Below are positions 2 through 64,000 of a stretch of 64,000 nucleotides of DNA, piece by piece. The notes under the pieces are model-generated. The model did no database searches. It saw only the letters and a program-made list of their open reading frames with translations, and had not been told where the DNA came from. Location: NCBI GenBank assembly GCA_040753675.1, contig JBFMEB010000008.1, forward strand, positions 6,736 through 70,735, in the 5' to 3' direction. Within the stretch, counting starts at the first letter, position 1. Every line of letters begins with the position of its first letter. Position numbers and translations under genes: made by a program. This stretch comes from Candidatus Omnitrophota bacterium. GTDB lineage: Bacteria > Omnitrophota > Gorgyraeia > JAHJTE01.

Positions 2-3000
2 AACGATTGGGCGGCAGCAGTCAAAGTTGATATAGCTGTAAATGTGGGAGGTAAAATTGAAGGTCCTCACCCGACCCTTACTGTTATTACTTCCAGAAAG
101 AATGGCCCCGAAGGGCTCTTAGATTATCTGGCTATTCTTGAGCAGGTTTTATTAAATGCTGATACATCATTTGAAACTGCATTTTCTCAAGAAGCAAGGG
201 ATAACAATAATCTCACTAAGGCAGTTTCAGTTGAGTGGTATGGGGATGATTATCCCGAGAATCAGACTACTGTATACGAAAACACAAGAAATATCGAAGC
301 ATACATTATGCTAAGGTTGAATAAGCGAGTAGCGCAGCCGCAGAAACAACTCTTGATGCGCGTATGGGGCAATTTATTGGATAATCCGCATTCATGGTTT
401 GAGATTCCTATGAAGATAGTGAATGATTATCAAAATGGTAGTTATCGCTTTAGAGGCATTTTGCCTCAGTTCTTTTCAGGTACATTTACTTACAGGTGTT
501 CACTCGATGGTGGTAGAACTTGGTTCTGGTTGAATAAGGGGCCTCAGGACAATAGGGTAATTATCAATAAGCTTGAGCCATCAGCAGAGTTAAGTGAAAG
601 AGAAACATTTATTCAATTTGCGCCACCTCGCACATCTCTAAGAAGTATGACTGAACAAGCACCAGACACAGAGCAATTCTACTATAGTAATAAGGATAGA
701 GGAGACGTTGCGAGGTTTACTCAAAATATTGCTGGAGATAAACGCTTTGTATACTATTTTGCCAGAGCACAGGTTAGCCAGGCAGAAGGCGAAGAAAATA
801 GGGTAATTTTTGCAGATTATATTGAGGGCAAAGACAAAAGGTTAGGTGGCTCAATCGCAATATACTTTACTAAAAAAGATATGACCATAACTATTGAGAT
901 GAATGGCGCAATGCAAAGTGAAACGGTAATATCAGATGACGCAGAAGAAGAGACGCGTGGCGAGCGAGGTTGGGATAGAGCCAAAATAGTAGTCTTTTTA
1001 GATGATGATTATACAGTGCGTAGCGTTGAGCATCTCAGGAGTTCTATGGGCCTGTCGCGGATTGCAATTTCGATATTATTGACTGATGCCGGTATCCCTC
1101 GTCTATTACCAGAATTATATAGCATTTTAAAAAGACAATTATCCCTATCAGATGTTGATGATCTATTGCGCCACGTTGAAAAAATAGATAATCAAATAGC
1201 ACCTCTAAGTTTGATTTCTCATATTAATGGCCTGCTTGCCTCTAAAAAAACGCAGGATATCACAGATGAAGATATTCTAAGAGTCAGAGACTTAATATAC
1301 TGCAAGAGCTGGATTATAAGAAGAATCACGTTAAAATGCCTATATAATTTAGTAAAGCATAATAGGTTCTCGGCTGAAGAGTTAGAAGAGCTAAGAGATT
1401 TTTCATTACGGAGTAATATTGCCGAAGATTTACATATATTCAGAAGAATGTTCATAGAAGACCCCCAGAGCATCGTCGATACGATTAATTCATTGTTTAA
1501 AATCCAGATAAACAGTCAAGACTTGGCACATGCTTATATACGCTGGTTTGGTGCAGGGCAAAATAAGAATATTTATAGGGCCACTATATTTTTACGCTCC
1601 GGCAAAGAATTCAGTATTGCCTTATCTACAATCAGGCATGATCCTATCGGAGAAGGCTTTGATAGAAAAAGAATTGATGAAGCTACAGAATTTTGGCGAG
1701 AATTATCTAATAATAATTGTCCTCAACTTTGCAAGTTTGGTATGTCGTTATGGGCCGAAGACTATAGGCCGCGCATAGCAGATAAACCTATTTTGCCTAC
1801 GCTAAAGAGGCAGGCATACGATACGAGCCGTTTGATTAGTAATGATGTACAAGTCGTATTGCGAGAGTTTGTAGAAGGTCATGACTTACAGCAGAGTGTA
1901 GATGAAGAGAATATTTCTCCGGAGGAGAAGCGAAAGGCAGTATCAACTTGTGTAAGACTAGTTAAAGGTCTTTGGAAATTTTCCTCCCAGCAGTTTTATA
2001 TAAGTGATTATAAACCAGCTAATATTGTATTGACCAAAGACGCAGAGGGGCAATTTGTAGCCAAGATAGTTGATTTAGATATACTGAGGGCAAACGGAGA
2101 GATTTCTGATTTGCTAGATTCTATGGAAAGCTATTCCTGTTATAAAGAATATCTTGCCGGATTAAAAGAATCGCTTGAATCAAGGCATAGCATCACTGGC
2201 GTTACTGCTAGAGAGCCCATAGATGCCTCGAGTCGCGGAAACAGCCGCGAAGGAGTTACTGCACTCATCAGCCAATTTGGCGGCATTGAGGCAATCATCC
2301 AGCAATTTGGCAGTTTAACAATTCAACAGATTAAGGAATTATATCAGATACCAGAATCAGACTTAACTCGTTTAGTTAATTTAGGTGTGCAGTTTACCCG
2401 TGGCCCTCCTGAACTTGGCGTTGCAAATCACTTCCAAGAAAATACTATTTACATTTTAATTCCTGTAAACGCAACTCTCCAAGAAGTCTCTCATGAAATA
2501 TTCGCAGTTCTTAATCCAGAAGTAACCCACCAGCAGAACCCCATCCGCCTTGCCATCAACAATCCTGGTCCTTCTGAATTTGAAATAATCCGCCAATACT
2601 TGAAAGGCAACTTATCCAGCATACAGCTTGTAAATGTAAACGGCGTATCACCTGCTAATCTGCATTACTTATTAACCAAGGACTTGGCAGCAGAGCCAAG
2701 CTTTAGACAATGGTTTAACCAGAATATCTTTGCTACTTCTTCTGGCTTAGCCAGTAAGGATACCTCTGGCAAAGAAGTTGAGCTCTTATCTGTAACTGAG
2801 ATTATTGAGACCAAAGACCTTCCCTGGAAGTCCTTGGATGTTGATGTAGTCTTAGAAGCTCAAGAGGTAAAACTTGCACCTGTGCATATAAACCAAGGCG
2901 CAAAGAGGGTCTTAGTAAATCATCCTTCAATCCTTGCAGTAAGTGCTTTAAGGCAAGTAGTCTTGAGTCTGCCCCAGGATAAGATTATTGCTGTTGAATT

Positions 3001-6000
3001 TACAGATATCCAGCCGCCTACTAATTTACAGCGCGGCTTAGACAATTCTGGTCCTGACCCAGTCTTAATGAGAGCAATGCGTATTAACGTTAGCTCTTGC
3101 TTTAGCCAGGATGTAAAACAGGTCCTTAGCCAGCTTATTCCCCAGTTAGCTCAAATTACCCAAGGCCGCATCCACTTTAGTCCTCAGGCTCAAGGTAGTC
3201 TCTTAGATATACACATAATCTTGAAAGAGGATACTGACATAAAGACCATTAATCAGTTGTTTAAACAAGCTTCTCTGACTAGCTTAAAAGATAGACTCAT
3301 CTACTCTGAGGATAATTCTATAGTCTCATCTGATTTAGCTGCAGAGCCAAAACTCATTTACTTATCCCGCTCTACCAAGGTCACTGGCAAGAGAATAGTC
3401 CACTTACAAGTCTGGCACAATGAGCATACTGGGTTTAGCTTAACCCAATTACCAGAGGTTTTATCTCTCTTGCAAACAAAAACTCCTGGCACTATTATCA
3501 GTTCAAAAGATTTATCAGCTATCCCAACTAAACTCGAACAACTCCTTAGCTGGGTTAGGACTCAAAGGCAAGATTTATCTATTAGTTCTGGTACCTCATC
3601 TTACTTACCTCATCCTACTCGCAAACTTCCTAAGATATTGCCGGATGATATCAGGGCAATTGTAGGCATTAATGGCCCAGGCAGAACTGGCCGCACTATT
3701 TGTTGGGCAATGGCTGGCAATCCTAACATTGACCTGCGTATGATCAACGGCGCATCCAGTGCCTTTGTCTTGATGTGGTTATTAGCAGAAGATACTGTGC
3801 AAGCCTCAACCCATAAGCCAGTAGCCAGACTCATCATTACCTATACTCAACTAAAAAGAGAATTAAACACCTTATTAGTAAACTATTCATACGAAGAAGT
3901 CCAGACCATGTTAGAAGGACTGATTAGTTCAAGTAGGCTCTTGGTATTAGAAGAAGATGAGTTTAATAAAGCCTTATCCAAGCTCTTAACTACCTGGGCT
4001 AATCAAAACCCAGAACAGGGAGTGAGTAAACTAAAAGCCTCTCTAATCGCAATATTAGACCTCTCTGGTAAAAAACTCCTCTTAACCAACGAACGAAAAG
4101 CAGTAAGCGAACTTGCCTGGAACCAGGCTGGTATAAACATTATCTTAGAATGTACTGGTGATTTAAAGAATGCAGATGAGGCAAGCCAGCATTTAACTAA
4201 CATCCCAGGCGGCAAGGTCATTATCTCAGCTCCAGCTGAAGGCGCTGGCCAGTCAGTAGTCCTGCCCATAATATTACCTTCTAAGGCAGCCAGGATTGTT
4301 GACAATGCCTCTTGCACTACTAATTGCTTAGTTCCTGCTACTTATGTTTTAGATAGAGAATTTGGAGTTATTGCTCAAGAGATACTTACTGACCATGCCT
4401 ATACCACTGACCAGGTGTTTGGCAAACATGCTCCTCATAAAAAAGAGCCCACCCGAGGAAGAGATGGAGGGATTAACATCCTGCCTGGCTCAACTGGAGC
4501 AGCCACAGCAGCAGCTAAGATTATTACGAGCTTAATTGGCAAATCTGATGGCTGGGCAGTAAGAGCTCCAGTAGTTACTGGAAGCGTGGTAGTTATTACT
4601 GCTGTGCTTAAAGGCAAGGTTAGCCGAGAAGATATACAACATGCCTTAAGAAAAGCCAGTCTTACCTACTTAAAAGGCGTACTTGGCTACACTGTTAATC
4701 CTATTACCTCAAGCAGCCTTATTGGTAATCCAGCTTCCAGCATTGCTGATGGTAATTCTATTCAAGTGATTAACTATGATGAAGAACTTAATCAGACCAT
4801 AGTAAGACTTGAGACCTGGTACGATAACGAAACTGGCTTCTCTACCAGAATGGTTGACCATGCAGTGTATGTTGCAGGCCTAATGCAATTACCCGGAAGA
4901 GTCATTGCTGACATAGGTCCTGATACAATTGAATTATTTAGGAAACATCTACAAGATAATCTATCTACAGAAGGCACTATTCTCTGGAACGGTCCATTAG
5001 GCGTAGTTGAGGTTCCTGTTACAGCCAAAGGCACAGAGGCAATAGCCGATACAATTGCAGGCCTACCTGCAAGTATTACCAAGGTCATTGGTGGTGGAGA
5101 CACCTTAAAGACCTTACCTGATTCTATCCGAAGACAGATGACCCACGTCTCAACTGGTGGAGGTGCATTCTTAGAGGCATTCCAATTCGGCGTTGAAAAC
5201 CTTCCTGGCTTAAAGGCATTAGTTGACCCAGAGACTAAACAATTCAGCCAATTAGATGAGCTGTTAGCTAAATTAAAAGATGGCGATAGCGTCTTAATCC
5301 GTGCTGACTTTAACGTGCCGTTAGATTCCCAGCTCAATGTCACTGATAATACCCGCATTGTTGAGGCCTTAGCTACTATCAGGGATATATTAAATACTAA
5401 AAAGGTAAAGGTGATACTCTTAACCCATCTTGGCAGACCCAATGGCAAGTATGATCCTAAACTTACTACTACTCCCATATATGAGGAATTATTAAGACTC
5501 TTACCTGAATATAAAATACATAAGGTAAATGACTGCGTTGGTGAACCAGTAAGACAATTTATTAAAGATACCTTAGCCCCCGGCGAGATTCTATTGTTGG
5601 AAAACTCCCGCTTCAGATTAGCTGAAGAGCTTAACTCTGATAGCTTCTCTCAAGAATTAGCTAACTTGGCTACTTATTATGTCAATGATGCCTTTGCAGT
5701 AAACCACAGGGCACATAGCTCTAACGTAGGGGTGACTAAATTCTTGAAGTTCGGCCATAAGTTTGCTGGCCGCCTCTTGGAAAAAGAATACCTCCACCTC
5801 AAAGCCCTTTGTGAAAACCCCACTCAACCTCTCATCGTGCTCCTGGCAGGCGGCAAGGTTGCTGACAAGATGCCTATTATCAATGCAGTTAAGGATAAGG
5901 CAATACTCTTCTTAATTGCTGGCAAGATGTCAGTTGCCTTCTTAGAAGCAAAAGGAATTAAAGTAGGCGATTCTTATCCGGATAAGCAAGATGTGGAATT

Positions 6001-9000
6001 AGCTGCTAAGCTCTTAGCTGACCCAACCTTAGCTCAGAAGATCATCCTGCCTATTGACTACACTGTAGTCACCGATGTCTCCACAGGAAAAGATGCCACA
6101 CTAGAGAAAGGAGATGTTCTTCCTACTGATACCTCTGTATTCGAAGCAGCATTTAGAGACTACTTGACTTATTATGTCCCTGACCAGACTCAGGAGGCAA
6201 AGGCAAGAGAACCAAGAGACGCCTCTGCTGAAGGCAAAACTCGCGAAGAAGTTACTACACTCATCAGCCAATTCGGCGGCATCCAGGCACTCATCAACCA
6301 ATTCGGCAGTTTAACAATTCAACAGATTAAGGAATTATATCAGATACCAGAATCAGACTTAACCGGCTTAATTGATTTAGGCGTGCAGTTTATTCGAGGC
6401 CCTCCTGAGCTTGGAGTTGCCAACCATGTTGAAAACTCCCTTACCTATATTATCATCCCTGAAACCGCCACTTCCAAAGAAGTCTCTCACGAAATAAATG
6501 CAGTCTTAAATCCCGAGCTTACTCATGAAGAAAATCCAATCCGCCTAAGTATATCTCTTTACGGACCTCATCCTTCACAAGAAGGGCTAAGGCTCTTATA
6601 TGAGAAGGTAGCAGGAGCACGTCAACAAAAACCAGCTGACTTTAGAATCAGAAGTCTCTATGCCTTCCCGGTTCAAAAACATGGCGCCACCCCTTCTGAT
6701 GCAATAAGTTTTGGTTGTGTTTTAGAAAGCGGCCCAATATTAGAACAGGCAGGAGTAATGGGAGGTATCTCAGCTGGCGAGGCAGAACCCGGAACACACG
6801 AGAGTATAAATGCTGCAATTAAATTCTTTAACGAATATGTAGCCAAAGAATTCATTGGCTTAAATGTCGCAGACCCAGAGAAAATAACTAAAAAAATTAT
6901 TGAATTAGACGATAAGTTTAAGGCTCAAGCTGAAAACAAAGATAAACCTCGTTTCTCTTACATTGGCTCTGAGATTTCAGTTGGTATCTCGATGATTGTC
7001 TCAATTGCCTTTGCTGAGAGATTAGGCGTTCCTTTGGAAATAGTTTTAAATTATCGTTACAATGAATATGCCCTAACCCATAATTTAGCTACAGGACTAA
7101 AGCCTATAACTATTCCAGTAAATTATTCAGTTGTCTGGGAAGGGGGAAAACACGGTGCAGCCAAATTCTTACCAGAATTAGTAGAAGCAGGCATTATTAA
7201 AGATGACAGCCGCTTCCCAAAGGAATTCAAAGACCCTGGGAGAATCGCAAAAGGCGATAAATCCGTTATGCTGGCAATGGTCCCGCCACAAGAGACCCAG
7301 GTCATTGTCTTTGCTCCTACCTGGAGACAGGCTCGTGATATAGGAATTAAGCTTACCAAAAAATATCAGGCCTTACTTAAGGAAAACGGAATTAATATAG
7401 AATATGGCGCTGAATCTGGCCGAACTACTAAACAAGTCTACACCAAAGATAAACGGCTTATTACCTTAGAATTAGTCTTAGATATTTTAGAAGATGCAGT
7501 AAATTCCCTGCCAGAAGAAGAGCAAAGATTTGTGCGCTATGCCTTAGACATTGCCTCTTCTGAAATGTATATACCAGAGATTGATATGTATTACATTGGT
7601 CCTTCTTCTGCCGGCAATGATAGCGGCTTAGTTACAAATGAAGAATTTACTAAATATAAATTAGAACTATTTAAGAGATATCCGCGCTTCATCTCCTGCG
7701 AAGACTGGGCAGATGAAAATAAAATAGAGCACTGGGAATCTGCTAAAGCCATAATGCCGACAATGATTCAGATGAGTGATGATAATGTGGTCTCAAATGC
7801 TCTCCTCATCAGGAAGTTTACCCAGGCAGGAGTAATGAATGCCCATTTACAAAAAGCTAATCAGTCAGCAGAAGAATTGGCTATGATTGAGGCAGTTGCT
7901 ACGAGCCACTTCTTAAATAATGTAGTTATCTTCTCTCACCGCGGCACTCGTCCAGAACTTGAGACATACACTGCAATTTCGGCTATAGCTATGGGTGCAT
8001 TTGCTGGCAAATGGACCTTATGGGGACCTGGAAGAGGTGCTTTAATTGCAGTTATGAATCAGGTAGATGAACTATATAACCAAGGTCCTTATAAAAATGT
8101 TACCGTTACTTATCAAGGCGGCCTTGTTTTAGATCCAAACGGCCCCTATAAAGATTATGGCTGGGCAAAGAGATTGAGAGAAGAGATTGGCTCTGCGGTT
8201 TATAAAAGGCGGCATATTTTAAAGCAACTTTTCAACAATAAGGTGGCTTCTAAAATAATTTATGTGGTGCTTAAAGGCGCAAGAGAAGAACTTGAAGGAG
8301 TTGCTCATCCTAATTTAGATAATATAGCAAAGCAATCTGCTTTAGGATTGATAAATATCGTTGGCGACCAAGGCAATACTCTTAATTTAGTTTTAGAAGA
8401 AGCTGCTAACCTGGGGATGGATGTTATTTCTTTTGCTGGAAAGAATTTGACTGAGCAAATCGAAGGATTAGAGACAAACATTCCAAATCATAATTTCTTC
8501 TCTTTAGAAATAGATAGCAGAGATGTAGGTAGTTTCGATGGTTTTATCCCGCAAATCCTCAGTATGATGAATTTTGAAAATGCCTATACATTGGTTATTA
8601 CTACAGACTCTTTTGACATCGCTCCAATTTTAATTTATTCCAAAAATAGCAGACAATATAAAGGTATAGATAGATTTACACAAGAACAGGCAAGAGAGGG
8701 AAGTTTAGGTGTCATATCAGGCCAGGATATTTTATCTTTGACACTTGGCCATGCGGGTAGATTGGATAAAGTAGATGGCCCGGTTGATACTGGCGATAAA
8801 AATGAGCCTTTTGTCGAAACAGTTCCTGGGTTAACTTATACAAGGAGTCCTTCTAAGATTGTTTTCTTGGTGATGGACGGATTAGGGGATGTGCCTTTTG
8901 ACGCTGATACAGCATTAGAAAAAGCTCATCATCCTAATTTAGATACTTTGGTAAAACAATCTTCTGTCGGATTAGTAGATATTTCTTCCCTGCCAGGCGT

Positions 9001-57000: not shown

Positions 57001-60000
57001 ACAGGCAGATATAGAGGTAGCCTGGCAAAAATTAAAACAAGCATCTACTAACCTAATAAATATTATGAAGGCCGAATATGTAAATTTTGTTTTCGGCTTT
57101 TTTGATGAATTTGTAGCTGTTATAGAATCTATCCTTCAAGCAGGCAATGCTGACCAGGCTAAATTTCTATGGCGATCTTTTAATGCCCCGCGCTTTTTCT
57201 CAAATTACCCTAACAAAGAAACCCTCCTTAAATCAAATCGTAGTAACTCGTTACTATTATTAAATAAATTGCGACACAATACTTCTGATATAGTTGCTCA
57301 AAGGCAGGCAGCATCGTCATTATTAGAGTCAGCCCACCCAGCAAGAGAAGAGCTGAAAAGACTTTTTAGCCATCCGCGCTTTAGAGAAATTTTTAGCCGC
57401 CATATCAGTTATTTAATCTATCTAGAACGAGCTTACGAACAGGTAGTAACAGAATACATTTCAGAGAGAATTTCAGCTATGTTTGGTGAGGCAGTTATTT
57501 TAACGGATTCGCCTTTAGTTAGAATTAGATTTTCACAAGTAAGGAGCTTAGATTCCTGTATTTTTGATCCTTTAGTTGAAGATTTATTAAGCCCATCTGA
57601 AATTCGATGGATTACTGAAGAGGTTAGAAAATCTATTAAAGGACGCTTCGGCGATGCAGCTGGCCAATATTTCTTGGAAAATAACCAGGAAGATGCTCAG
57701 CTTGAGAGATTAGCTAGAGGGGCAAGTATCTACGAAGCGCTTTTTGAAGAATTTAAAGATTTAGAGAGGTTAATTGATGCCTTGTTGGAAAGGAGGGAAT
57801 TTACTGCCTCCTACATTGCGCGTCTTAAGTTGGTGGCAGAACTAAATGCCGATATTGCCGCAAGGGTTGTTCCTCTAAATGAAAGCAGATTACTCGAAGG
57901 CAGGCGAATAGCTAAAGTGCAAGAAGGTTTGCATGCCAGTTTAGATTTAGATTATCTAATTAATAGGGCAGTAGGAGAAGTCTTAAGACGCACATTGTCT
58001 GATGTAGAAGAGCAAGACATTGAAAGAGTATTATTAGAGACAGGCGGACCTTGTTTGGTTATTTTTAGGACAAGAGAATTCTTTTTAGATCCTAATGTGG
58101 CTAGTTCAAGAGCCTGGGGTTCGTTTATCCTTAGGGATAGCGAAGCTGGCAGGAGCGTTATTATTGATGAAGATAGAATCTTAGCGAGGATTTACCTTGA
58201 TGAGCCAGAATTAAGGAATGCTCTTGGGACCGCACAAGATAGAACAAAACAAGGACTTATCGAAGCAGTTTCTCAAGCATTCGCAGATAAAGTAGAGCGC
58301 GGCGTAATCGGGGACGACAAAGCGAGGTTCAGATTATTGACAGAAAACTTGGGAGATATCGATAGAGATCGAGTAAGTTTCTGTGGGACTTTTAAGGCAA
58401 TTATATTTGATTTAGGTGGAGTGATAAGACGCGTTGATTATTTTAAAGCCGCCCGCGGCTTTGCGCCATATAGCAGCCTGAACGAAGATGAGTTGATAGC
58501 TAAGCTTATAATTCTTGATACAAGAGAGTCTGCAGATAAGGGTGAGATATCATTGGCTGAATTTATAAGTGATGCTAAAGGTGAGTTACAATTAACCAAT
58601 ATCAGCGACCAAGAGTTTGTAAGAATTTATAACGATGTGTTTACTATCAATGAGGATATTGCAAACCTAATTGAAACTCTAAAGACATTAGGGTATAAAG
58701 TGGCAATCATTTCCAATAGCAGCCAAATCAGGCACCAACATATGCTTGATACAATACCCGTACTTTCAAAGATAGACGGATTGTTTTTATCTTATGAACT
58801 CAAAATGAGAAAGCCAGATACAGCTATTTATAGATATGCGTTAGAGCAGTTAGGAGTAAAACCCGAGGAAGCAGTTTTCTTCGATGATACAAAAGAAAAT
58901 GCCGATGTTGCTTCAAGCATAGGAATTTTTGGCTGCTGGGTTGACTATAAGCCCAGCGTGTATGTTAATGCCGCTTTGGAAGAATTAGGAATAATTAATC
59001 AGGATAAAAATTCAACCTTTAGGGAACTTTTAGGTAAAAATTGTGCAGTAAGAACAGTTTCTCAGATACTGGGAGAATCCGTAGAAGAAGTTGCGGATAA
59101 GACTATTAGAGGCGCAGTCAAAACAGGCCGGCCGTTAAATATATATGATTTTAGAGGCAACAAGGTTTCCCTGGCAAAAATTTTAAATGCCATATTTGGC
59201 GCATACCAAAATAAGCTCGTAGATATTAAAATTAAAAGATCCAATATCGTCCTACTTCCTTCTATCTTAAAAATTCTGCCTCCCTTTGCGCTGACTGCCG
59301 CAGTTTACTTTATGGCTGTTGTAGTTACTTCGCTTGGAGCCTTTAGTCTGGTTATCGCACTCTTTGGCATAATTGTCTCTCTTTGTTACGCGGCTTTTAT
59401 TATTGCTACGCTTGGTGAAATTGACCGGGTGGAGATTTTATTCCATGCAGCCCAATTAGGACGCTACAAGTCAATGGTAATTAAGAAATTGGACGATTCA
59501 TTGGAGTGGCATGCAGAAATTGGGCGCGAATGTTCATTTGTATGGAATCCTTCAACTCTTCTGTCTCGTTTAGTGATAGCGAAAAAAATCCCTGCGGAAA
59601 CTCTCGTTGGCGCGGAAGCTACGGAAGTGGAAACTGAACGTAGAGAAACCAGGTTAGCCGGCTTAAATAGTAATATGCAGCGTCAGGCGACAACAATCAG
59701 TTGGGGTATCCGGGCAAGGCGTAATAGTAATCTGGAAACATATCTGGAAGGATTTGATAATCATAGCGATGACATTGAGAATGCCAAAAGAGTTATGCTC
59801 AGCGCTGGGAGTGAAAGAAAACTATTAGTAGAATTAGGGAGCGGAAATACAGCTGTTGGCTTAGCAATAGCGCAAAGAAATAGCGGTATAGACGTCTTAA
59901 CTACAGATAAGTATTCGCTTGGCTTGCTTGAGTCCCCTGCCTATCTTGTATACGCGCAAGCTTGGAGCAGGAGAAGCTTAGCTGCGCAGTTGTCTACTTT

Positions 60001-63000: not shown

Positions 63001-64000
63001 ATTAAATCGTTTCGGACTTTATATCCGCCGGCTTCTTGAGGAAATCCTGACGCATCACCAGGGGATCGACTGTGATGTGATGGAAAAAATTTACCGATAC
63101 ACTCTTCGTGTTTGGCTGATGAGAGGTATTTATGATGCTGTAACTGATAAAAAAATTATTCCCGAATTTACAGCCGAAGAATTAACTAACGCTGCAAAAC
63201 AGGCGCGTCACAACGGAGCATTTCGATACTTGGCCAGTGAGGTAGCCCTTCTTCACATGCTGAAAGATTTGCATCAGACCATGTTTGATCCGGAATTTCA
63301 GCCGCTGAAGAAAAATGTGTCGCCTGGCGTAGATAAAATCACTGAGAGTGCAACAAACCTCTATTTTGGCGTAACAGAGGCGGAAGTCGCGTCATTCAAA
63401 CCGCGGTACGCTCTCAATAGCCGTCTTATAAAGTTGTACGGAGAATTGGTTGAGCAAGTTTACCGCGCCGGAGACAGAAAACGTAAAATTCCACCGGGAC
63501 TCTACGTAGATAAAATTACTCTAATCATTGAACATCTTCGCCGGGCAATCCCTTATGCCGAAGCCCCTCAAGCGCAGGCGCTGCGACAGCTCATTCGATA
63601 TTTTCAAACTGGAGAAGAAGAAGATTTTGAACGCTACAATGAGGCGTGGGTGAGAGATGGGGCAGTCGTGGATATTGCGGTTGGCCCTATTGAGGTCTAT
63701 GACGACCCCCTGGCTCAAAAAGGAAGTTTCATGGGAATTGTAAACTTTCTCGATCCGCACATGCAAAAAATAACTTCTTCTTTGCAAGGCCTCGGTCTTT
63801 ATCTGGAGCAATCTGCTCCGTGGGATGATATCTACAAAAAGGCTGAAGTAAATCTTCCGACGATTAGGTTTGTCCAGGACCTCATCAGGACAGGGTTATG
63901 GGGAGGGGTTATCCATCTTGCCGGCGAAAATCTTCCTGATAATCCCCGGTGGCGGGAAAGATACGGCTCTAAGAATACGATTATTCAGAATATTGTTCCC
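2..64000 (+). CDS. Single uninterrupted ORF (frame +2) covering the entire window; internal fragment (no start, no stop in view) of a giant multidomain protein, >=21,333 codons in-window
   Basis: Codon-by-codon reading of + frame 2 found no TAA/TAG/TGA from nt 2 to nt 64000. The phase was re-checked on ~60 individual lines, including all domain junctions and the region 61.8-62.9 kb. Homology-recognisable domains all lie in this one frame. The ORF track lists no + strand frame-2 ORF (all seven + ORFs are frame 3), which is what a stop-to-stop ORF finder gives when a frame has no stop in the window. Codon usage is homogeneous and AT-rich. Confidence 0.85.
1850..2110 (+). other. Degenerate protein-kinase-like / phosphotransferase catalytic-loop region within giant ORF
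   Basis: Translation '...FYISDYKPANIVLTKDAEGQFVAKIVDLDI...' resembles the HxDxKPxNIL catalytic loop plus DFG-like 'DLD' of ePK/APH-fold kinases, but the His is replaced (S). Weak. Confidence 0.3.
2245..2640 (+). repeat. Repeat module A, copy 1 (~130 aa; motif FGGIE...SHEIxAVLNPExTHxxNPIRL), unknown function
   Basis: Translation 'TALISQFGGIEAIIQQFGSLTIQQIKELYQIPESDL...VSHEIFAVLNPEVTHQQNPIRL'. It shares a 59-nt perfectly identical core (2309-2367) with copy 2 at 6305-6363, and a diverged third copy lies at 45470-45900. Confidence 0.8.
3650..4880 (+). other. Glyceraldehyde-3-phosphate dehydrogenase (GAPDH)-like domain inside giant ORF; catalytic Cys/His motifs intact, ~60-aa insertion in NAD domain
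   Basis: 'AIVGINGPGRTGR' matches the GINGFGRIGR NAD motif. 'DNASCTTNCLVP' is the active-site signature. 'LTDHAYTTDQ...ILPGSTGAATAAAKI' and C-terminal 'WYDNETGFSTRMVD' are canonical GAPDH blocks. Confidence 0.9.
4890..6110 (+). other. Phosphoglycerate kinase (PGK)-like domain, circularly permuted: C-terminal ~115 aa (4890-5270) precede the N-terminal ~280 aa (5290-6110)
   Basis: 4890-5270 translates 'DIGPDTIE...ILWNGPLGVVE...AKGTEAIADTIA...IGGGDTL...HVSTGGGAFLEAFQFGVENLPGLKAL', the PGK C-terminal nucleotide-binding half. 5290-6110 translates 'VLIRADFNVPLD...THLGRPNG...LLLENSRF...NDAFAVNHRAHSSNVGV...LIVLLAGGKVADK...LPIDYTVVTD', the PGK residue 1-~285 order. In-frame junctions were verified on lines 4861 and 5221. 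Confidence 0.85.
6245..6600 (+). repeat. Repeat module A, copy 2
   Basis: 'TTLISQFGGIQALINQFGSLTIQQIKELYQIPESDL...VSHEINAVLNPELTHEENPIRL'. The 59-nt identical core 6305-6363 equals 2309-2367. Confidence 0.8.
6650..8110 (+). other. Enolase-like domain (divergent, metal-ligand and catalytic positions present)
   Basis: Blocks align to enolase: 'IELDDKFKAQAENKDKPRFSYIGSEISVGISMIVSIAFAERLGVPL' (IDLDGT.NKSKFGANAILAVS...G.PL). Also present are 'ALDIASSEMY', 'ISCEDWAD', 'QMSDDNVVSN', 'LLIRKFTQAG', 'VVIFSHRGTRPELE' (SHRSGETED block) and 'GKWTLWGPGRGALIAVMNQ'. Confidence 0.75.
8255..8760 (+). other. Degenerate, internally deleted paralog of cofactor-independent phosphoglycerate mutase (apgM-type); metal-binding DGLGD and DHSTP motifs lost
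   Basis: 'KIIYVVLKGAREELEGVAHPNLDNIAKQSALGLINI' parallels '[43 protein letters not shown]' of the intact copy, then jumps to the C-terminal half ('GMDVISFAGKNLTEQIEGL...LVITTDSFDIAP...GSLGVISGQDILSLTLGHAG'). A shared 23-nt identical core lies at 8417-8439 and 9596-9618. Confidence 0.6.
8855..10020 (+). other. 2,3-bisphosphoglycerate-independent phosphoglycerate mutase, archaeal-type (apgM, alkaline-phosphatase superfamily) domain, motifs intact
   Basis: '[13 protein letters not shown]...HHPNLD...PGSGPGHAAIFGY...VVDRRAGRP...LVLTADHSTPARIKAHSFHPVPVLIYS...EKGSLGRIPAKVIMPL' has the full family signature. Confidence 0.85.
10030..10190 (+). other. Predicted transmembrane segment(s)
   Basis: Hydrophobic stretch 'NIFFSIVSGIGLVTPSGLSLELDSISYLLMAGLLFVGLLTHIPVI'. 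Confidence 0.5.
10980..11400 (+). other. Possible class-I SAM-methyltransferase-like Rossmann segment (weak)
   Basis: 'GEMVVHEWGAGDGFSAAVFLDMM' resembles MTase motif I (E/D-x-G-x-G-x-G). No other motif is secure. Confidence 0.25.
16880..17480 (+). other. Pol-beta-superfamily nucleotidyltransferase domain of the CCA-adding enzyme / poly(A) polymerase head type
   Basis: 'VVFAGGSVRDPIFGRFSNDIDFSVAL' matches the GG(A/S)VRD...D.D signature of PF01743-type NTases. A downstream block 'DCTMALNRIAMDMDGKMYGSLFGLFDFLRGKIHFGG...VVRALRTSFG' follows the R-DFTINA/DPxGG/RxxRAxRF pattern. Confidence 0.65.
17830..17950 (+). other. Predicted transmembrane segment
   Basis: 'TTLLSIILLALLFFSGKEAVSLMAMSFMMMATVAEV'. 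Confidence 0.5.
19560..20700 (+). other. Long Q/E/K/D-rich coiled-coil / low-complexity region
   Basis: ~380 aa with heptad-like charged repeats ('...LSQETNEFSQGASNLDELKDKITKRKEEADLSDLDREVDNLKDKAGDIDNQAAEIEKLAKQLEEKAQSLSEA...'). Codon composition shifts to cag/gaa/aaa. Confidence 0.6.
20900..21470 (+). other. von Willebrand factor type A (vWA) domain with MIDAS motif
   Basis: 'GRVCLVIDTSGSMGAAEEGSDLWNVALSTALVL...' carries a DxSGS MIDAS motif and the alpha/beta pattern typical of vWA. Confidence 0.75.
21540..21680 (+). other. Predicted transmembrane segment(s)
   Basis: 'SGILALSLLILVCGFNIFFGANLSEFMGNLAFIFALTV'. Confidence 0.5.
21950..22600 (+). other. AAA+ ATPase domain, MoxR/CbbQ-like (copy 1)
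   Basis: Walker A 'IGPAGTGKN'. '...FAHPEFKFIALANPSAEMEGGGTYVTESLPADVWGRLIQINVGYLPPEEEAELL' matches the MoxR sensor region (ATxNP...EGTY.LPEAxLDRF). Confidence 0.8.
23030..23540 (+). other. AAA+ ATPase domain, MoxR-like (copy 2)
   Basis: Walker A 'VYGPTGSAKTT', Walker B 'AFVDEMDK', sensor 'FFFIGAANPP...GGSELSGEVFDRFSV'. Confidence 0.8.
24695..24772 (+). repeat. 78-nt perfect intragenic direct repeat, copy 1 (core of a ~230-aa paralogous module 24400-25100)
   Basis: nt 24695-24772 are identical to 26669-26746 and encode 'LLLVEETSHLLLPFETDNLTIELATF'. The flanking ~700 nt are paralogous at protein level but diverged. Confidence 0.85.
25140..26270 (+). repeat. Three tandem ~105-aa beta-rich repeats (motif ...G(D/E)(T/I)IPGI(G/K/A)...ISE(G/D)...)
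   Basis: 'ILSVGDTIPGIGGRVVSM...', 'IIASGEIIPGIKNPIYSHIPSISEDEVVTLWVDD...' and 'KIGLRGRTIPGIAGKIRGFNFPDISEDRIITLARVDD...' form three protein-level repeat units. No family assignment. Confidence 0.5.
26669..26746 (+). repeat. 78-nt perfect intragenic direct repeat, copy 2 (core of paralogous module 26380-27050)
   Basis: Identical to 24695-24772. Sits 1974 nt downstream of copy 1. Confidence 0.85.
27150..28200 (+). other. TPR-/HEAT-like alpha-solenoid repeat region (~10 repeats of ~35 aa)
   Basis: Recurring 'A(K/E)..A..IA.ELAKAG....A...' pattern, e.g. 'KAKALVTIAVELNKAGNKTKAKEIFSQA', 'AKAKELFTQAISVAEEV', 'ILTAIVIELAKRGEVDKAHTIANQMA', 'YKAIALADLAYEFARSGD'. Confidence 0.5.
28960..29460 (+). other. 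Polytopic TM module T1 (4-5 predicted helices)
   Basis: 'LYILAAVCLGLLWANWRVVKIIIDRFSNLIKEAKQALFDVAFSVLFHFLVIGG...LCFLMAILSVTALSGFGVASFISKLLRKLQEQRE...' is paralogous to T2. Confidence 0.55.
29530..30050 (+). other. Polytopic TM module T2 (tandem paralog of T1)
   Basis: 'IYILGASCIGLAWLNVRVFQMIISRITSLTKETLQALIEIIGRISCYALVAGL...LYFLAAFLSVTAICGFGVAANISKLLRWVQKKRE...' has the same architecture and shares ~70% nt identity in the 'FLSVTA..GFGVA...SKLLR' stretch. Confidence 0.55.
30590..30800 (+). other. GC-richer (~50%) palindrome-dense patch inside the ORF; 15-bp imperfect inverted repeat with ~60-nt loop plus several short hairpins; possible embedded structured element
   Basis: 'GGCCCCGTTAGAAAG' (30593-30607) pairs with 'CTTTCTAACGGGGCT' (30668-30682). 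Other palindromes are 'TCTCTTTGGAGAGA', 'CGGGATCCCG' and 'GTGACcagagtagGTCAC'. The translation here is low-complexity ('AGPVRKIIFVASQSLPQSVAGGENWLLSNGAGPERSISLERNVGIPKSDQSSHFIRDGKQRSNSAG') between two TM stretches. Confidence 0.4.
31400..31570 (+). other. 2x[4Fe-4S] ferredoxin domain (OFOR delta-subunit-like), set 1
   Basis: 'CDNCDYCVAACPD...HCSECEMCARACPTGAI' gives two CxxCxxCxxxCP motifs. Confidence 0.85.
32170..32900 (+). other. 2-oxoacid:ferredoxin oxidoreductase beta-subunit-like (TPP-binding) domain, set 1
   Basis: 'SRLCQGCPQP' (Cys motif). '[56 protein letters not shown]' matches the GDGG...[11 protein letters not shown] TPP/Mg signature of PorB/KorB. Confidence 0.85.
33560..34100 (+). 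other. OFOR gamma-subunit-like domain, set 1
   Basis: 'IRWHSFAGQGAQVGVKTLGTILHLLGFYSLAWLRFGPERRGAPTAGFNRFSGSPIL...GLKPGGILIVNT' matches the PorC pattern (R.HGRGGQG...FGPERRGAPV...GLK.GG.LIVN). Confidence 0.8.
34205..35310 (+). other. OFOR alpha-subunit-like domain, set 1 (begins with an in-frame ATG exactly where stand-alone PorA proteins start)
   Basis: 'MKFLTGNEASALAIMQNKPGVLGVYPITPSTVAAELIAEEIA...AEDSAQASVIGAQAMGVDAVTITASQGLLRMHELL...DSGWIQVYCSNAQELYDMMIMAPLIA...VIADGFAISHTRE' is the PorA signature (GNEA.A.GA...YPITPSS...SE.AA...TSSQGL.LM.E...RD.GW...DGF..SH). Confidence 0.85.
36810..36950 (+). other. 2x[4Fe-4S] ferredoxin domain (delta-like), set 2
   Basis: 'CVNCQHCVTRCPD...HCKGCSICVGACQD'. 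Confidence 0.85.
37730..38480 (+). other. OFOR beta-subunit-like (TPP-binding) domain, set 2
   Basis: 'GLCRGCDAG' and '[50 protein letters not shown]'. Confidence 0.85.
39150..39720 (+). other. OFOR gamma-subunit-like domain, set 2
   Basis: 'WYSRGGKGAVSANSVLVKFLYSVLGLYPQGFPKFGPERQGAPIEAFATFSG...GLVLDLAAWPEFYKNLGPEAVMVVNT'. Confidence 0.8.
39818..40900 (+). other. OFOR alpha-subunit-like domain, set 2 (also begins with an in-frame ATG: 'MTGCGAAVQ...')
   Basis: 'MTGCGAAVQVIKRTSELIPTMFSGYPITPNT...RADSEHSAISAGLSGVLTGAFAFDASSS...HRGHSDTMLIRDTGFIQIYAATQQEVYDLGMIG...VAMDGFYLTHT' and C-terminal 'VGLVSPTVYRPWQ'. Phase around 39781-39901 was checked directly against the sequence lines. Confidence 0.85.
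41440..41560 (+). other. Predicted transmembrane segment(s)
   Basis: 'TLLLSFALFALFFTNIDIQPLLKVLFDLGSLAFVLGMVF'. Confidence 0.5.
42600..42950 (+). other. Possible degenerate GT9 (heptosyltransferase-like) half-domain
   Basis: 'VLIFMVCGLGDACVRQRVIKIGTEEGF' and '...NLPALITGQDNLSNMLYLNSHTSGRAFVWEILG' weakly echo GT9 N- and C-terminal motifs (ILIIR.SALGDVV; LIGNDSGPMHLAAALG.P.VALFG). Low confidence. Confidence 0.3.
43300..43640 (+). other. GNAT-type N-acetyltransferase-like segment
   Basis: 'VVGSYIVKIELDE...NVDEQLRRKGVGRALLFASIKEA...CRLYIEEDNERMLNLAFQIGFVKEG' includes the motif A Q/R-x-x-G-x-G/A pattern. Confidence 0.5.
43930..44780 (+). other. Histidine-kinase core (DHp H-box + HATPase_c)
   Basis: H-box 'FLIHDLRYRRF', N-box 'MFFNLVMNAVDAM', G1 'LKVSDSGKGMSKE', G2 region 'LHSLGFEFVKQTVADLGGWVAIDSKLGRGTIVIVSLP'. 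Confidence 0.75.
45470..45900 (+). repeat. Repeat module A, diverged copy 3
   Basis: 'IKRFGGIEKILKKG...KIIAHEIQAVLIPDLTHEENLFIDATLSKNPP' conserves FGGIE and HEIxAVLxPxLTHEEN. Confidence 0.55.
46065..47250 (+). other. Acyl-CoA dehydrogenase (ACAD)-like domain; begins at an in-frame ATG ('MARDFVAERV')
   Basis: 'GAIAATEPDAGSDVGNIALKAHEDGEFFVLEGNVNKIFISTAGLADIYIVLA...AFLVEPSMKGFEIGKVEHKLGQRASPTAVLSFTDVRV...GRIGIAAVASGIIEAAFRDAKEYAAQRRQF...[39 protein letters not shown]' has the full ACAD pattern including the YEGT(S/N)xIQ catalytic-Glu block. Confidence 0.85.
48200..48350 (+). other. Highly basic K/R-rich stretch
   Basis: 'PTRAPKPPSQTKTRRKNARRVKRQKGDKSAQREETKVEKSKPQRSETG'. Confidence 0.5.
48640..49250 (+). 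other. Cluster of predicted transmembrane helices (~5)
   Basis: 'IIYLGLFLDLLILAGLSGLFFAHFL...ITFVTVAALILLMASIANA...VWLAISAIVGIAVGGFLNIVM...VIIFIICTSAFYSGFI...SGLAIATIFVLIFGIRFI'. Confidence 0.55.
51820..52760 (+). other. Ribose-phosphate pyrophosphokinase (PRPP synthetase)-like two-domain PRTase fold
   Basis: 'LNGLVELLLILSALEEEKVKSVQCLIPGFGYARGDKN' (cf. LMELLIMIDALKRASA...VIPYFGYARQDRK), 'NIHFLDSEGAHFFKAIPGLIIHNL' (DLHA.QIQGFF.IPVD.L), and PRPP-binding loop 'DKDIIFVDDIISTGGTFVRG'. Confidence 0.7.
52870..52980 (+). other. Predicted transmembrane segment
   Basis: 'FTNVAGFVLILLFIWWQVLGGRFGIADFCAVAAVTAL'. Confidence 0.5.
53900..54010 (+). other. Predicted transmembrane segment
   Basis: 'GFSSMFGLPIGIKGSGVLLIAAITFLCLIFLF'. 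Confidence 0.5.
54650..55330 (+). other. Protein-kinase-like domain (ePK/atypical; DFG replaced)
   Basis: Gly-loop 'VLGYGYEAKVFRV', beta3 Lys 'ETFALKVG', catalytic loop 'IYHGDLMSRHIIVSD', then 'KLVDPKL' in place of DFG. Confidence 0.6.
55900..56790 (+). other. Glycosyltransferase family 9 (LPS heptosyltransferase-like) domain
   Basis: N-terminal 'NILIICNGYFAAGDQLNNSLILKGLRQRYPDAKIEVY...DLVINLNS' and C-terminal 'IMVSPFTSTAIKNWPLSNWAQIINSIL...MRQCCLHIGGDSFPAHLASALGITTLTLYGPTSP' (cf. GNDSGPMHLAAALG.P.VALFGPT.P). Confidence 0.8.
58390..58950 (+). other. HAD-superfamily hydrolase domain (subfamily IA-like)
   Basis: Motif I 'AIIFDLGGVI', motif II 'VAIISNSS', motif III 'RKPD', motif IV 'AVFFDDTKENADVA'. 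Confidence 0.75.
59260..59420 (+). other. Predicted transmembrane segments (2)
   Basis: 'LPPFALTAAVYFMAVVVTSLGAFSLVIALFGIIVSLCYAAFIIATLG'. Confidence 0.55.
59800..60300 (+). other. Possible class-I SAM methyltransferase-like segment
   Basis: 'RKLLVELGSGNTAVGLAIAQRNSGIDVLTTDKY' resembles MTase motif I plus the acidic residue of motif II. Confidence 0.35.
61860..62040 (+). other. Gly-rich hydrophobic (TM-like) segment immediately upstream of the nested TA cassette
   Basis: 'VLAAILSVTIVAILFIFSPLLANYLGLDLNLQAGTVKLAGIGFENISGILGSLGILGGVYY'. A 45-50-nt imperfect direct repeat lies on the other side of the cassette (62730-62790). Confidence 0.5.
62044..62460 (-). CDS. vapC: PIN-domain toxin (VapC-like), 138 aa, probable TTG start preceded by GGAGG
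   Basis: Track ORF 'MLIVIDSNEYIFAFG...FEEVKRNL...DAFIAAYTDWVGADALVTENRHF...' has PIN hallmarks: N-terminal acidic 'IDSN', central Glu, 'D.LIAA.A', and 'LVTxNxxF'. GGAGG (rc of 62468-62472) lies 7 nt upstream of the TTG at 62460. The TAA stop lies at 62041-62043. Its start overlaps the stop of the upstream small ORF. Confidence 0.7.
   Translation of the reverse strand: MLIVIDSNEYIFAFGHVEKSATRALFDKLLTRPQTHNLRIPRTVFEEVKRNLSPEAFREFNAFICDLTNVDEDISVPFELGVKYEYLGLKSSDAFIAAYTDWVGADALVTENRHFLSRKENLPFKVVNAERCLRMLFK
62444..62608 (-). CDS. Small basic helical protein (54 aa), putative cognate antitoxin; family not recognised
   Basis: rc of 62444-62608 gives ATG...TGA = 'MRKNIKEAKKRLARLREIIAKNPPPIFKMSKEEVIKTLRKTRERLWREKLAYRH*'. 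The Shine-Dalgarno AGAGGTGA lies 6 nt upstream. The 3' end overlaps the vapC start by 17 nt (typical TA coupling). It was not in the ORF track (<60 aa). Confidence 0.5.
   Translation of the reverse strand: MRKNIKEAKKRLARLREIIAKNPPPIFKMSKEEVIKTLRKTRERLWREKLAYRH
62615..62622 (-). promoter_or_regulatory. Shine-Dalgarno (AGAGGTGA) for the small antitoxin-like ORF
   Basis: rc of 'TCACCTCT' at 62615-62622, 6 nt from the ATG at 62608. Confidence 0.55.
62630..62658 (-). promoter_or_regulatory. Sigma70-like promoter for the TA operon: -35 TTGACA (rc of 62653-62658), 17-nt spacer, -10 TATGGT (rc of 62630-62635); palindrome CAATATTG overlaps -35
   Basis: The minus-strand sequence reads '...GAGGCAATATTGACATTATTAAATAAATATGGTATGGTAACAATTAGAGGTGAATAAATATG'. 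Confidence 0.5.
62700..62830 (+). other. Gly-rich hydrophobic segment immediately downstream of the TA cassette (paralog of 61980-62040)
   Basis: 'IIGASFGFGNISGIFGSFGGWLALISSTILCQVVG' parallels 'LAGIGFENISGILGSLGILGG'. At nt level, 'ggttttgggaatatatctgggatttttggttctttcggagg' is ~80% identical to 'gggtttgaaaacatatccgggatcttgggttctttgggcattttgggagg'. Confidence 0.5.

Follow-up and report, generated by a model that had tools for sequence, protein, structure and literature searches.

The 64,000-nucleotide (nt) stretch analysed here (the window) covers positions 6,736 to 70,735 of contig JBFMEB010000008.1 from a Candidatus Omnitrophota bacterium (GenBank assembly GCA_040753675.1). It is quite probably an internal slice of a single genuine Omnitrophota giant gene, whose product, a membrane-stitched multi-enzyme protein, would exceed 21,333 residues and 2.4 MDa. 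The part in view encodes the ATP-yielding half of glycolysis (GAPDH, a circularly permuted phosphoglycerate kinase (PGK), a cofactor-independent phosphoglycerate mutase (iPGM) and enolase), two sets of 2-oxoacid:ferredoxin oxidoreductase (OFOR), an acyl-CoA dehydrogenase (ACAD) and a ribose-phosphate diphosphokinase (PRPPS). The same chain carries AAA+/VWA, kinase, GNAT, HATPase, GT9, HAD and M49 domains, and between these blocks lie hydrophobic hairpins or clusters and long near-orphan stretches.

Giant genes are well established in Omnitrophota but are barely understood with respect to whether the product is one chain, where it is located and why core enzymes are embedded in it. As a kind, the present gene is one more example beside thousands already catalogued. 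The slice is informative in that about one third of it is recognisable and includes lower glycolysis and two pyruvate-type oxidoreductases with intact motifs. If these are the sole gap, pgk, eno and por copies, central metabolism would hang on the translation of a transcript longer than 64 kb, and the case would bear on the limits of translation, folding and membrane insertion.

A reading frame open across the window

2 to 64,000, + strand: single open reading frame (ORF), 21,333 codons, 2.40 MDa in view, both ends cut

A reading made earlier from the sequence alone had claimed that + frame 2 is free of stops over 64 kb, and machine translation of positions 2-64000 bore this out, with 0 stops in 21,333 codons. 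The five other frames contain 2117, 1758, 1447, 719 and 1528 stops, and none of them stays open for more than 285 amino acids (aa). Base composition gives a stop probability of 0.0685 per codon, from which the probability of 21,333 stop-free codons is about 1e-657. The sequence-only reading had also put the chance spacing of stops at about 20 codons; stops were indeed to be expected, but the spacing was slightly generous, since about 15 codons are expected and about 10-12 are observed in the other + frames. When the window was divided into 21 consecutive 3-kb slices, frame +2 had 0 stops in each, and the two other + frames had 65-120 each. The frequency of G at codon position 1 was 0.29-0.36 in each slice, compared with 0.13-0.22 at positions 2 and 3. 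This excess, together with the lack of stops in every slice, indicates a coding signal in the annotated and dark parts alike.

Domains were detected with Pfam and NCBIfam. Every Pfam and NCBIfam match falls in frame +2, in agreement with the earlier statement that essentially all recognisable domains share one frame. The earlier remark that the ORF track is blind to this frame was correct as well, as the ORF listing omits ORFs that run off both ends. That the window is an internal slice with no gene boundaries in view fits the uniform coding statistics, the absence of alternative ORFs, and the spread of domains from aa ~615 to an M49 peptidase cut by the window end.

The translated sequence has an ordinary amino-acid composition (L 10.9, I 8.1, A 7.8, E 7.5%) and an entropy of about 4.1 bits in each 1,000-aa block, and is therefore neither a low-complexity nor a repeat protein. 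TRF reported only two trivial tandem arrays and no real tandem repeat, and the DNA is unique sequence. A tandem-repeat scaffold or adhesin giant (dockerin-type, TSP3/NHL/WD, or like the 36,806-aa protein of Chlorobium chlorochromatii) was rejected because no repeat family dominates; the entropy, the handful of old duplications and the two trivial TRF arrays also rule it out. About 30 distinct Pfam families are present, the highest copy number being 2. An NRPS/PKS megasynthase was likewise rejected, as no condensation/adenylation/PCP or KS/AT/ACP Pfam occurs in 21,333 aa. Searches for Rfam families and tRNAs detected none in the window, and this ruled out an intron- or ribozyme-containing gene or a tRNA-bearing region.

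Glycolytic modules, their relatives and the seams between them

2168 to 2641, + strand: module X copy 1, aa 723-880, just before the homology to the relatives' GAPDH-PGK protein
3131 to 3502, + strand: degenerate partial copy of a GAPDH C-terminal domain, aa 1044-1167, by self-similarity to aa 1506-1636
3662 to 4909, + strand: type I GAPDH, aa 1221-1636, by Pfam, NCBIfam and PDB
4919 to 6136, + strand: circularly permuted PGK, aa 1640-2045
6185 to 6640, + strand: module X copy 2, aa 2062-2213, where the PGK block meets the enolase block
6554 to 8296, + strand: divergent enolase, aa 2185-2765
8249 to 8821, + strand: shortened, degenerate iPGM-like copy, aa 2750-2940, by self-similarity to aa 2951-3317; it also matches the L037 iPGM
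8840 to 10021, + strand: archaeal-type iPGM (ApgM), aa 2947-3340
45401 to 45967, + strand: module X copy 3, aa 15134-15322, directly upstream of the ACAD

The GAPDH module carries the active-site motif ASCTTNCL at aa 1436. A ~70-aa insertion in its NAD-binding domain (aa 1274-1354) is kept in three relatives, L002, P0001 and P0002; GAPDH identity to the relatives is 53-56% with invariant motifs. In the PGK that follows, the C-terminal third (DIGP..WNGPMGV..GGGDT..STGGGAFLE..LPG) precedes the N-terminus (RADFNVP), with GGGDT at aa 1697 and RADFNVP at aa 1767, and the new N-terminus lies near the canonical 'GLDIGP' segment. Every segment and motif of PGK (PF00162), including RxDxNxP, is present, but in rotated and not in canonical order. 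When the pieces were put back in canonical order they aligned end to end with canonical PGKs, with scores of 374-610 as against 292-452 as encoded, and this identifies the module as a natural circular permutant. The permutation is conserved in L002, P0001 and P0002, while the relatives L041 and L039 have the canonical order. Its function is probably retained. A keyword search of the literature, which is no proof of absence, found no report of a natural permuted PGK.

The enolase scores 75 bits against TIGR01060 and keeps the equivalents of E211, D246, E295, D320, K345, H373 and R374. It is 59-64% identical to the enolase modules in L038-L041, which marks it as a conserved variant and not a product of decay. 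The ApgM scores 326.8 bits against TIGR00306 (cut-off 320), matches PDB 2zkt and is 55% identical to P0121. The degenerate GAPDH-C and iPGM copies sit directly upstream of their intact counterparts and look like tandem-duplication remnants. Outside frame +2, the lone ORF of at least 150 aa runs from 4792 to 5478 on the minus strand (228 aa, ATG start), antisense to GAPDH/PGK; it lies in an island rich in C at third codon positions and is most likely a shadow ORF.

This codon-usage island spans ~1800-7500 (aa ~600-2500) and takes in module X copy 1, GAPDH, the permuted PGK, module X copy 2 and half of the enolase. Within it the third-position (G-C)/(G+C) is -0.2 to -0.4, with C-ending codons preferred, compared with ~0 elsewhere; the bulk GC skew is reversed too and the tetranucleotide profile is deviant. 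Smaller islands occur at aa 7951-8850 and aa 11701-12000. The islands could reflect a separate origin or translational selection.

Homologues of the glycolytic modules were found as parts of much shorter proteins. Three modules have their closest relatives (53-64% identity) in Omnitrophota or Omnitrophota-like proteins of 1.1-3.7 thousand aa (kaa) that are encoded by separate adjacent genes, and the catalytic motifs are invariant at this level of conservation. The GAPDH-PGK block (aa 849-2068) is 52-56% identical to P0001 and P0002, and among 185,579 species genomes its only full-length match was in the Candidatus Omnitrophota metagenome-assembled genome L002, at 55% identity. The iPGM block shares 55% identity with P0121, P0122 and P0125, and NCBI names P0125 Candidatus Omnitrophota. 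We regard L002 ORF3, L039, L040, L038/L041 and P0121 as true homologues, at 53-64% identity. The PGK permutation (in L002, P0001 and P0002), the GAPDH insertion and the divergent enolase are points of likeness. In contrast, the relatives are separate genes with stops and ribosome-binding sites, have no module X and do not share the dark sequence of the window.

The relatives' loci are themselves rows of multi-enzyme genes. L002 encodes ORFs of at least 1648 aa (HEAT, methyltransferase, TPR, VTT), 507 aa, 2500 aa (ORF3: PFK, aldolase-like, GAPDH and permuted PGK) and 1895 aa (PPDK); the gene for a sugar-binding protein comes next. The genes on the P0001 contig encode >3400, 512, 1261 (FBPase), 1588 and 1978 aa (TIM, enolase, PGK), and are followed by PilZ and ABC transporter genes. 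At L038 the genes encode at least 1300 aa, then 1551 aa (TIM, PGK), 1218 aa (enolase) and 515 aa or more. L039 is a 3662-aa protein with PGK, FBPase_3, TIM and enolase, and L040 a 1321-aa enolase-iPGM protein. In L041 a TIM-PGK gene stands beside a separate enolase gene, and an ACAD is encoded further downstream as another separate gene. Gene boundaries in these relatives consist of 2-3 in-frame stops, then GGAGG, then ATG. At L002 14594-14641 and L038 8583-8624, neighbouring multi-enzyme genes are in the same frame and are split by 2-3 stops and a Shine-Dalgarno site; very few mutations would thus fuse them. Fused glycolytic proteins are a trait of this lineage, and the window protein strings such modules together in frame at far greater length.

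Comparison with the separate genes of the relatives locates the module seams with a precision of a few residues. Homology to the GAPDH-PGK protein begins at aa 849 and ends at 2068-2069, and enolase homology starts at 2179-2185. Module X copy 2 lies between these limits, and the three copies of the module are found at exactly three block seams. Module X is 125-160 aa long, with an invariant core (YIxIP..T..HEIxAVLxPxxTH[EQ][EQ]N) and a fold family left unassigned: Pfam gave no match at E≤10 and a fold search was not significant. Copies 1 and 2 are 77% identical in nucleotide sequence, with a synonymous divergence (dS) of ~1 and a ratio of nonsynonymous to synonymous divergence (dN/dS) of 0.21, which indicates purifying selection on the seam sequence. 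The module is absent from all relatives fetched. The seams are defined places where proteolytic neo-termini can be sought, and blocks such as GAPDH plus permuted PGK are well delimited.

Domains beyond glycolysis and membrane segments

10049 to 10180, + strand: transmembrane (TM) hairpin, aa 3350-3393, immediately beyond the glycolytic block; uncharged, with hydropathy values of 1.69 and 2.06
20924 to 23731, + strand: weak VWA (aa 6975-7075), strong TM segment (aa 7185-7203) and two AAA_5 dynein/MoxR-like modules (aa 7330-7600 and 7669-7910)
24401 to 25057, + strand: 8-k repeat domain, first copy (a), aa 8134-8352; putative zincin-like fold, in which EETSH would lie on the active-site helix
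26342 to 27007, + strand: 8-k repeat domain, second copy (b), aa 8781-9002; shares 52% identity with the first; coordinates from the hidden Markov model
28952 to 30955, + strand: cluster of ~10-12 TM segments, aa 9651-10318, with internal duplication of a ~190-aa unit
31295 to 35617, + strand: OFOR set 1, fused delta-beta-gamma-alpha, aa 10432-11872
36740 to 41329, + strand: OFOR set 2, fused delta-beta-gamma-alpha, aa 12247-13776
43295 to 44782, + strand: GNAT acetyltransferase (aa 14432-14526) and HATPase_c (aa 14823-14927), by Pfam
46043 to 47305, + strand: ACAD, butyryl-CoA-dehydrogenase-like, aa 15348-15768
47759 to 49204, + strand: TM segment, aa 15920-15938, and TM cluster, aa 16217-16401
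51956 to 52816, + strand: PRPPS (PRPP synthetase), aa 17319-17605; TIGR01251 143.9 bits, cut-off 113
54617 to 58957, + strand: protein-kinase-like (aa 18206-18368), GT9 heptosyltransferase-like (aa 18691-18973) and HAD phosphatase (aa 19464-19652) domains
63476 to 64000, + strand: peptidase M49 (DPP III-like), aa 21159-21333, truncated by the window end

Database-recognised domains account for about 32% of residues, and the catalytic and cofactor motifs of the enzyme modules appear mostly intact. Both OFOR sets are complete and of the four-subunit type, and they retain the two delta-subunit CxxCxxCxxxC motifs and the four cluster cysteines of the beta subunit (CxxCxxCxxxCP in set 1). The thiamine pyrophosphate (TPP) motif of set 2 is the canonical GDG..NN, and the PorC_KorC and PorD_KorD models score above their cut-offs in this set. 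The two sets are paralogous and ~26% identical. Single-chain pyruvate:ferredoxin oxidoreductase (PFOR) has the order alpha-gamma-delta-beta, and the usual operon order is gamma-delta-alpha-beta; the delta-beta-gamma-alpha order in the window differs from both. In the ACAD the catalytic Glu (YEGTS) and TEPxAGSD are intact. The window yielded no pyruvate kinase or PPDK, either of which would link enolase to OFOR by converting phosphoenolpyruvate (PEP) to pyruvate; in L002 PPDK is a separate 1,895-aa gene directly after the GAPDH-PGK gene. The two AAA_5 modules have the Walker A sequences GPAGTGKN and GPTGSAKT and the Walker B sequences IADE and VDE; the VWA/AAA region (aa 6901-8000) had no match in a PDB sequence search. 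A weak kinase-like stretch occupies aa 615-717.

Much of the remainder is dark. The ~3,600 aa between iPGM and the weak VWA (aa 3341-6974; 10022-20923) contain three features: the hairpin at 3350-3393, a weak Rad50-like coiled-coil match at aa 6611-6874 and a lone HEGVH at aa 6174. A search of an indexed 5.8-billion set found no homologues of aa 3801-5000 at E≤1e-5, and aa 7901-9100 had just 13 matches in 1.84 billion representatives. Scans with the first 1,000 aa against GTDB species genomes and with the last 1,000 aa against JGI metagenome contigs returned no match. The sequence beyond iPGM is not common to the relatives, and the dark sequence appears to be essentially private to this protein.

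For the 8-k repeats and the TM cluster, Pfam at E≤10 gave nothing meaningful. Module X and the 8-k domain, both dark, show a resemblance to zincins, which reaches moderate significance for one of them and is weak for the other. The 8-k domain has EExxH where zincins have HExxH, and the motif is degenerate in several relatives. We tried module X and the 8-k domain as a single family, and hhalign ruled this out; the two are unrelated. No additional copy of either was found in the window or in the relatives. A role for the seam modules as processing proteases is conceivable.

A Kyte-Doolittle scan gave 36 hydrophobic segments scoring ≥1.6, of which ~28 lie outside the enzyme cores, placed between soluble blocks. 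At ~20 aa each, the ~28 segments make up ~2.6% of the 21,333 residues by arithmetic estimate. Further to those listed, TM segments occur at 15821, 17622, 17977, 19758/19783 (a hairpin) and 20622; the segment at 7185 is a strong single. In a local positive-inside count, which is indicative only, the K/R-rich and hence inner side is that of the glycolytic, OFOR, ACAD, PRPPS and kinase-GT9-HAD blocks.

Interpretation and comparison with known giant proteins

We propose that the gene arose by in-frame fusion of an operon-like row of genes that were already multi-enzyme. Its cofactor-dependent modules would lie on the cytoplasmic face, tethered to the membrane by TM hairpins, and a single transcript and translation event would deliver a membrane-localised fermentative module of fixed stoichiometry. 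The part in view would take ~18-36 min to translate at 10-20 aa/s. Its enzymes could carry triose-phosphate to PEP, 2-oxoacids to acyl-CoA and reduced ferredoxin, and could perform acyl-CoA redox chemistry. By analogy with the relatives, each module probably works autonomously.

Several points weigh against this proposal. Neither gene end is in view. Roughly 68% of residues lack a recognisable function, the placement in Omnitrophota uses the relatives of just three modules at 53-64% identity, and no sampled close relative has an ORF longer than 3.7 kaa at the homologous place. Some modules depart from canon: the K396 equivalent of enolase is replaced and its N-domain is hardly recognisable, PorB of OFOR set 1 has GEG..DN as a variant TPP motif, the AAA modules have Walker A variants, and the protein-kinase-like domain is without HRD. 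The topology was derived from crude hydropathy and a local positive-inside count. On that count aa 7204-9650, which include the AAA+ block, and the M49 end would be extracytoplasmic, an awkward location for an ATPase. The segment at 7185 is flanked by 4 K+R on its N side and 0 on its C side, and the segment at 9651 by 0 and 3; the position of the AAA+ block between them would reflect either a missed TM segment or an unusual localisation. TM-based localisation of such giants is unreliable (West-Roberts et al., 10.1101/2023.11.21.568195).

Three other accounts were weighed. According to one, which is compatible with the identity proposed above, the fused-operon product is a self-processing polyprotein, cut at its seams in cis or by a partner protease into proteins of 1-4 kaa, with the embedded zincin-like modules as processing proteases. 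The coincidence of the seams with the relatives' gene limits (end at 2068-2069, restart at 2179-2185) and the presence of module X at exactly three seams under purifying selection both speak for it, and West-Roberts et al. proposed cleavage by C39/S8 peptidase domains (10.1101/2023.11.21.568195). However, Pfam found no C39 or S8 domain in the window, and module X is missing from every relative fetched and unrelated to the 8-k domain, whose EExxH motif is degenerate in several relatives; we consider this account unlikely. The fuller version, in which a whole fermentative operon has been welded into one frame and module X and the paired 8-k domains cut the chain into 1-4 kaa proteins, is decidedly doubtful. 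If true, core energy metabolism, with a naturally permuted PGK in it, would follow a viral-style polyprotein strategy in a cellular organism. We think it improbable that the protein is instead an extracellular predatory coat or adhesin, most of the chain being outside, attaching to and degrading prey envelopes, with its enzyme-like modules acting on the surface or within prey. Peptides of the giant protein of V. archaeovorus are three-fold up in attached cells, and coat formation has been proposed (PMC10066038); West-Roberts et al. predicted most domains to be extracellular (10.1101/2023.11.21.568195), GT9 and M49 could act on envelopes, and the positive-inside count for aa 7204-9650 and the M49 end points the same way. 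Yet what can be recognised in the window is dominated by enzymes that need NAD+, ADP/ATP, CoA, TPP, FAD, Fe-S clusters or ferredoxin and would be useless beyond the cytoplasm, and the positive-inside bias favours a cytoplasmic location for the glycolytic, OFOR, ACAD, PRPPS and kinase-GT9-HAD blocks. The window yielded no adhesin, lectin, dockerin, glycoside-hydrolase, lytic-transglycosylase or beta-helix repeat domain and no tandem repeats, and many of the extracellular calls were deemed implausible by West-Roberts et al. themselves (10.1101/2023.11.21.568195).

Finally, the frame might be an artefact, either of mis-assembly (a strain or paralogue chimera) or of polishing that hides frameshifts or stops, and the DNA might really encode several ordinary large genes. 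The separate genes at homologous places in the relatives, the codon-usage island with its C-ending codons at aa ~600-2500 and the repeated module X flanking the GAPDH-PGK block would all be in keeping with this. But random joins and errors create stops and never remove them, and 21,333 stop-free codons would have to be accounted for at P ~1e-657. The relatives' intergenic spacers with their ribosome-binding sites have no counterpart here, the seam sequence being coding and under purifying selection, and the composition is otherwise homogeneous. An assembly artefact by way of the module X repeats was rejected, since copies only 77% identical in DNA, at dS ~1, are too diverged to mislead an assembler. 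Such giant ORFs have also been confirmed in closed long-read genomes (10.64898/2026.06.07.730766), and we regard an artefact as very improbable indeed.

A genuine giant multi-enzyme gene thus remains the account that we favour, and it has clear counterparts. Omnitrophota giants reach 147,155 aa and have TM segments at ~2% of residues; 3,650 proteins are 10 kaa or longer, and one class is termed 'multi-enzyme metabolic cluster' (10.64898/2026.06.07.730766). The window protein resembles that class, which includes KR0015B_u4168876_114 of Gorgyraeia (147,155 aa; Nielsen & Lui 2026), in having a very long single ORF and many enzyme Pfams tiled with none dominating, in mostly unique sequence and in having few outside relatives. 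Three of its defining features are found here: at least 10,000 aa in one ORF, many Pfams and, by the Kyte-Doolittle scan, a TM share of ~2.6%, compared with ~2% in the class. The HATPase_c (PF02518), GNAT (PF00583) and HAD (PF13419) domains are shared with the signal-transduction module of the class. Oxidoreductase and peptidase content is a further likeness. In contrast, the set of GAPDH, permuted PGK, enolase, ApgM, two OFOR, ACAD and PRPPS is not described in the text of Nielsen & Lui, and the sugar-metabolism module that they describe (starch synthase, GT1, PGM/PMM, ROK) was not found in the window.

The window protein also resembles the Archaeovorins in part. These proteins reach 85,804 aa; the type sequence comes from Candidatus Velamenicoccus archaeovorus LiM (39,678 aa), and the domains listed include TPI, GPI, FBPase, PGM/PMM, FBA and PPDK as well as AAA_5, HATPase_c, HAD_2 and GNAT (10.1101/2023.11.21.568195). 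The V. archaeovorus protein has 42 TM helices and peptide evidence (PMC10066038). Shared with the window are membership in Omnitrophota, a giant ORF, many TM helices and embedded glycolysis-related enzyme domains. Among Archaeovorin-listed domains, AAA_5, HATPase_c, HAD_2, GNAT, a glycosyltransferase (GT9) and a peptidase (M49) are present, and dockerin PF00404 has no match in the window, as for Archaeovorins and as opposed to dockerin-type giants. The Archaeovorin set also takes in methyltransferase/SAM methylase, glycoside hydrolase (GH) and NUDIX domains, with frequent HEAT and TPR; a search of the window at E≤0.01 gave no match to methyltransferase, NUDIX, GH, HEAT or TPR, and SLT was likewise missing. 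The glycolytic enzymes differ, those of Archaeovorins belonging to the upper or gluconeogenic half of the pathway and those of the window to the lower half, with OFOR and ACAD added. Archaeovorins are delimited by a gene >90 kb (at least 30,000 aa), an N-terminal signal peptide with C39/S8, and SecA-like domains near the C-terminus (10.1101/2023.11.21.568195); the N-terminal C39/S8 and C-terminal SecA-like features would fall outside the window. The kinship with Omnitrophota giants suggested by the earlier reading is upheld by the Omnitrophota relatives (L002, P0125) and by the multi-enzyme, TM-stitched architecture.

The specific content of the window (lower glycolysis with a permuted PGK, two OFOR, ACAD and PRPPS) is unmentioned in the giant-protein texts and is a variation on a known theme. 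Classical fusions such as the Thermotoga PGK-TIM, single-chain PFOR, the ~760-aa GAPDH-PGK and fungal AROM also join pathway enzymes or OFOR subunits covalently. They combine 2-5 activities in at most ~1.6 kaa and are soluble and canonical in order, whereas the window protein has dozens of modules, TM segments and a permuted PGK.

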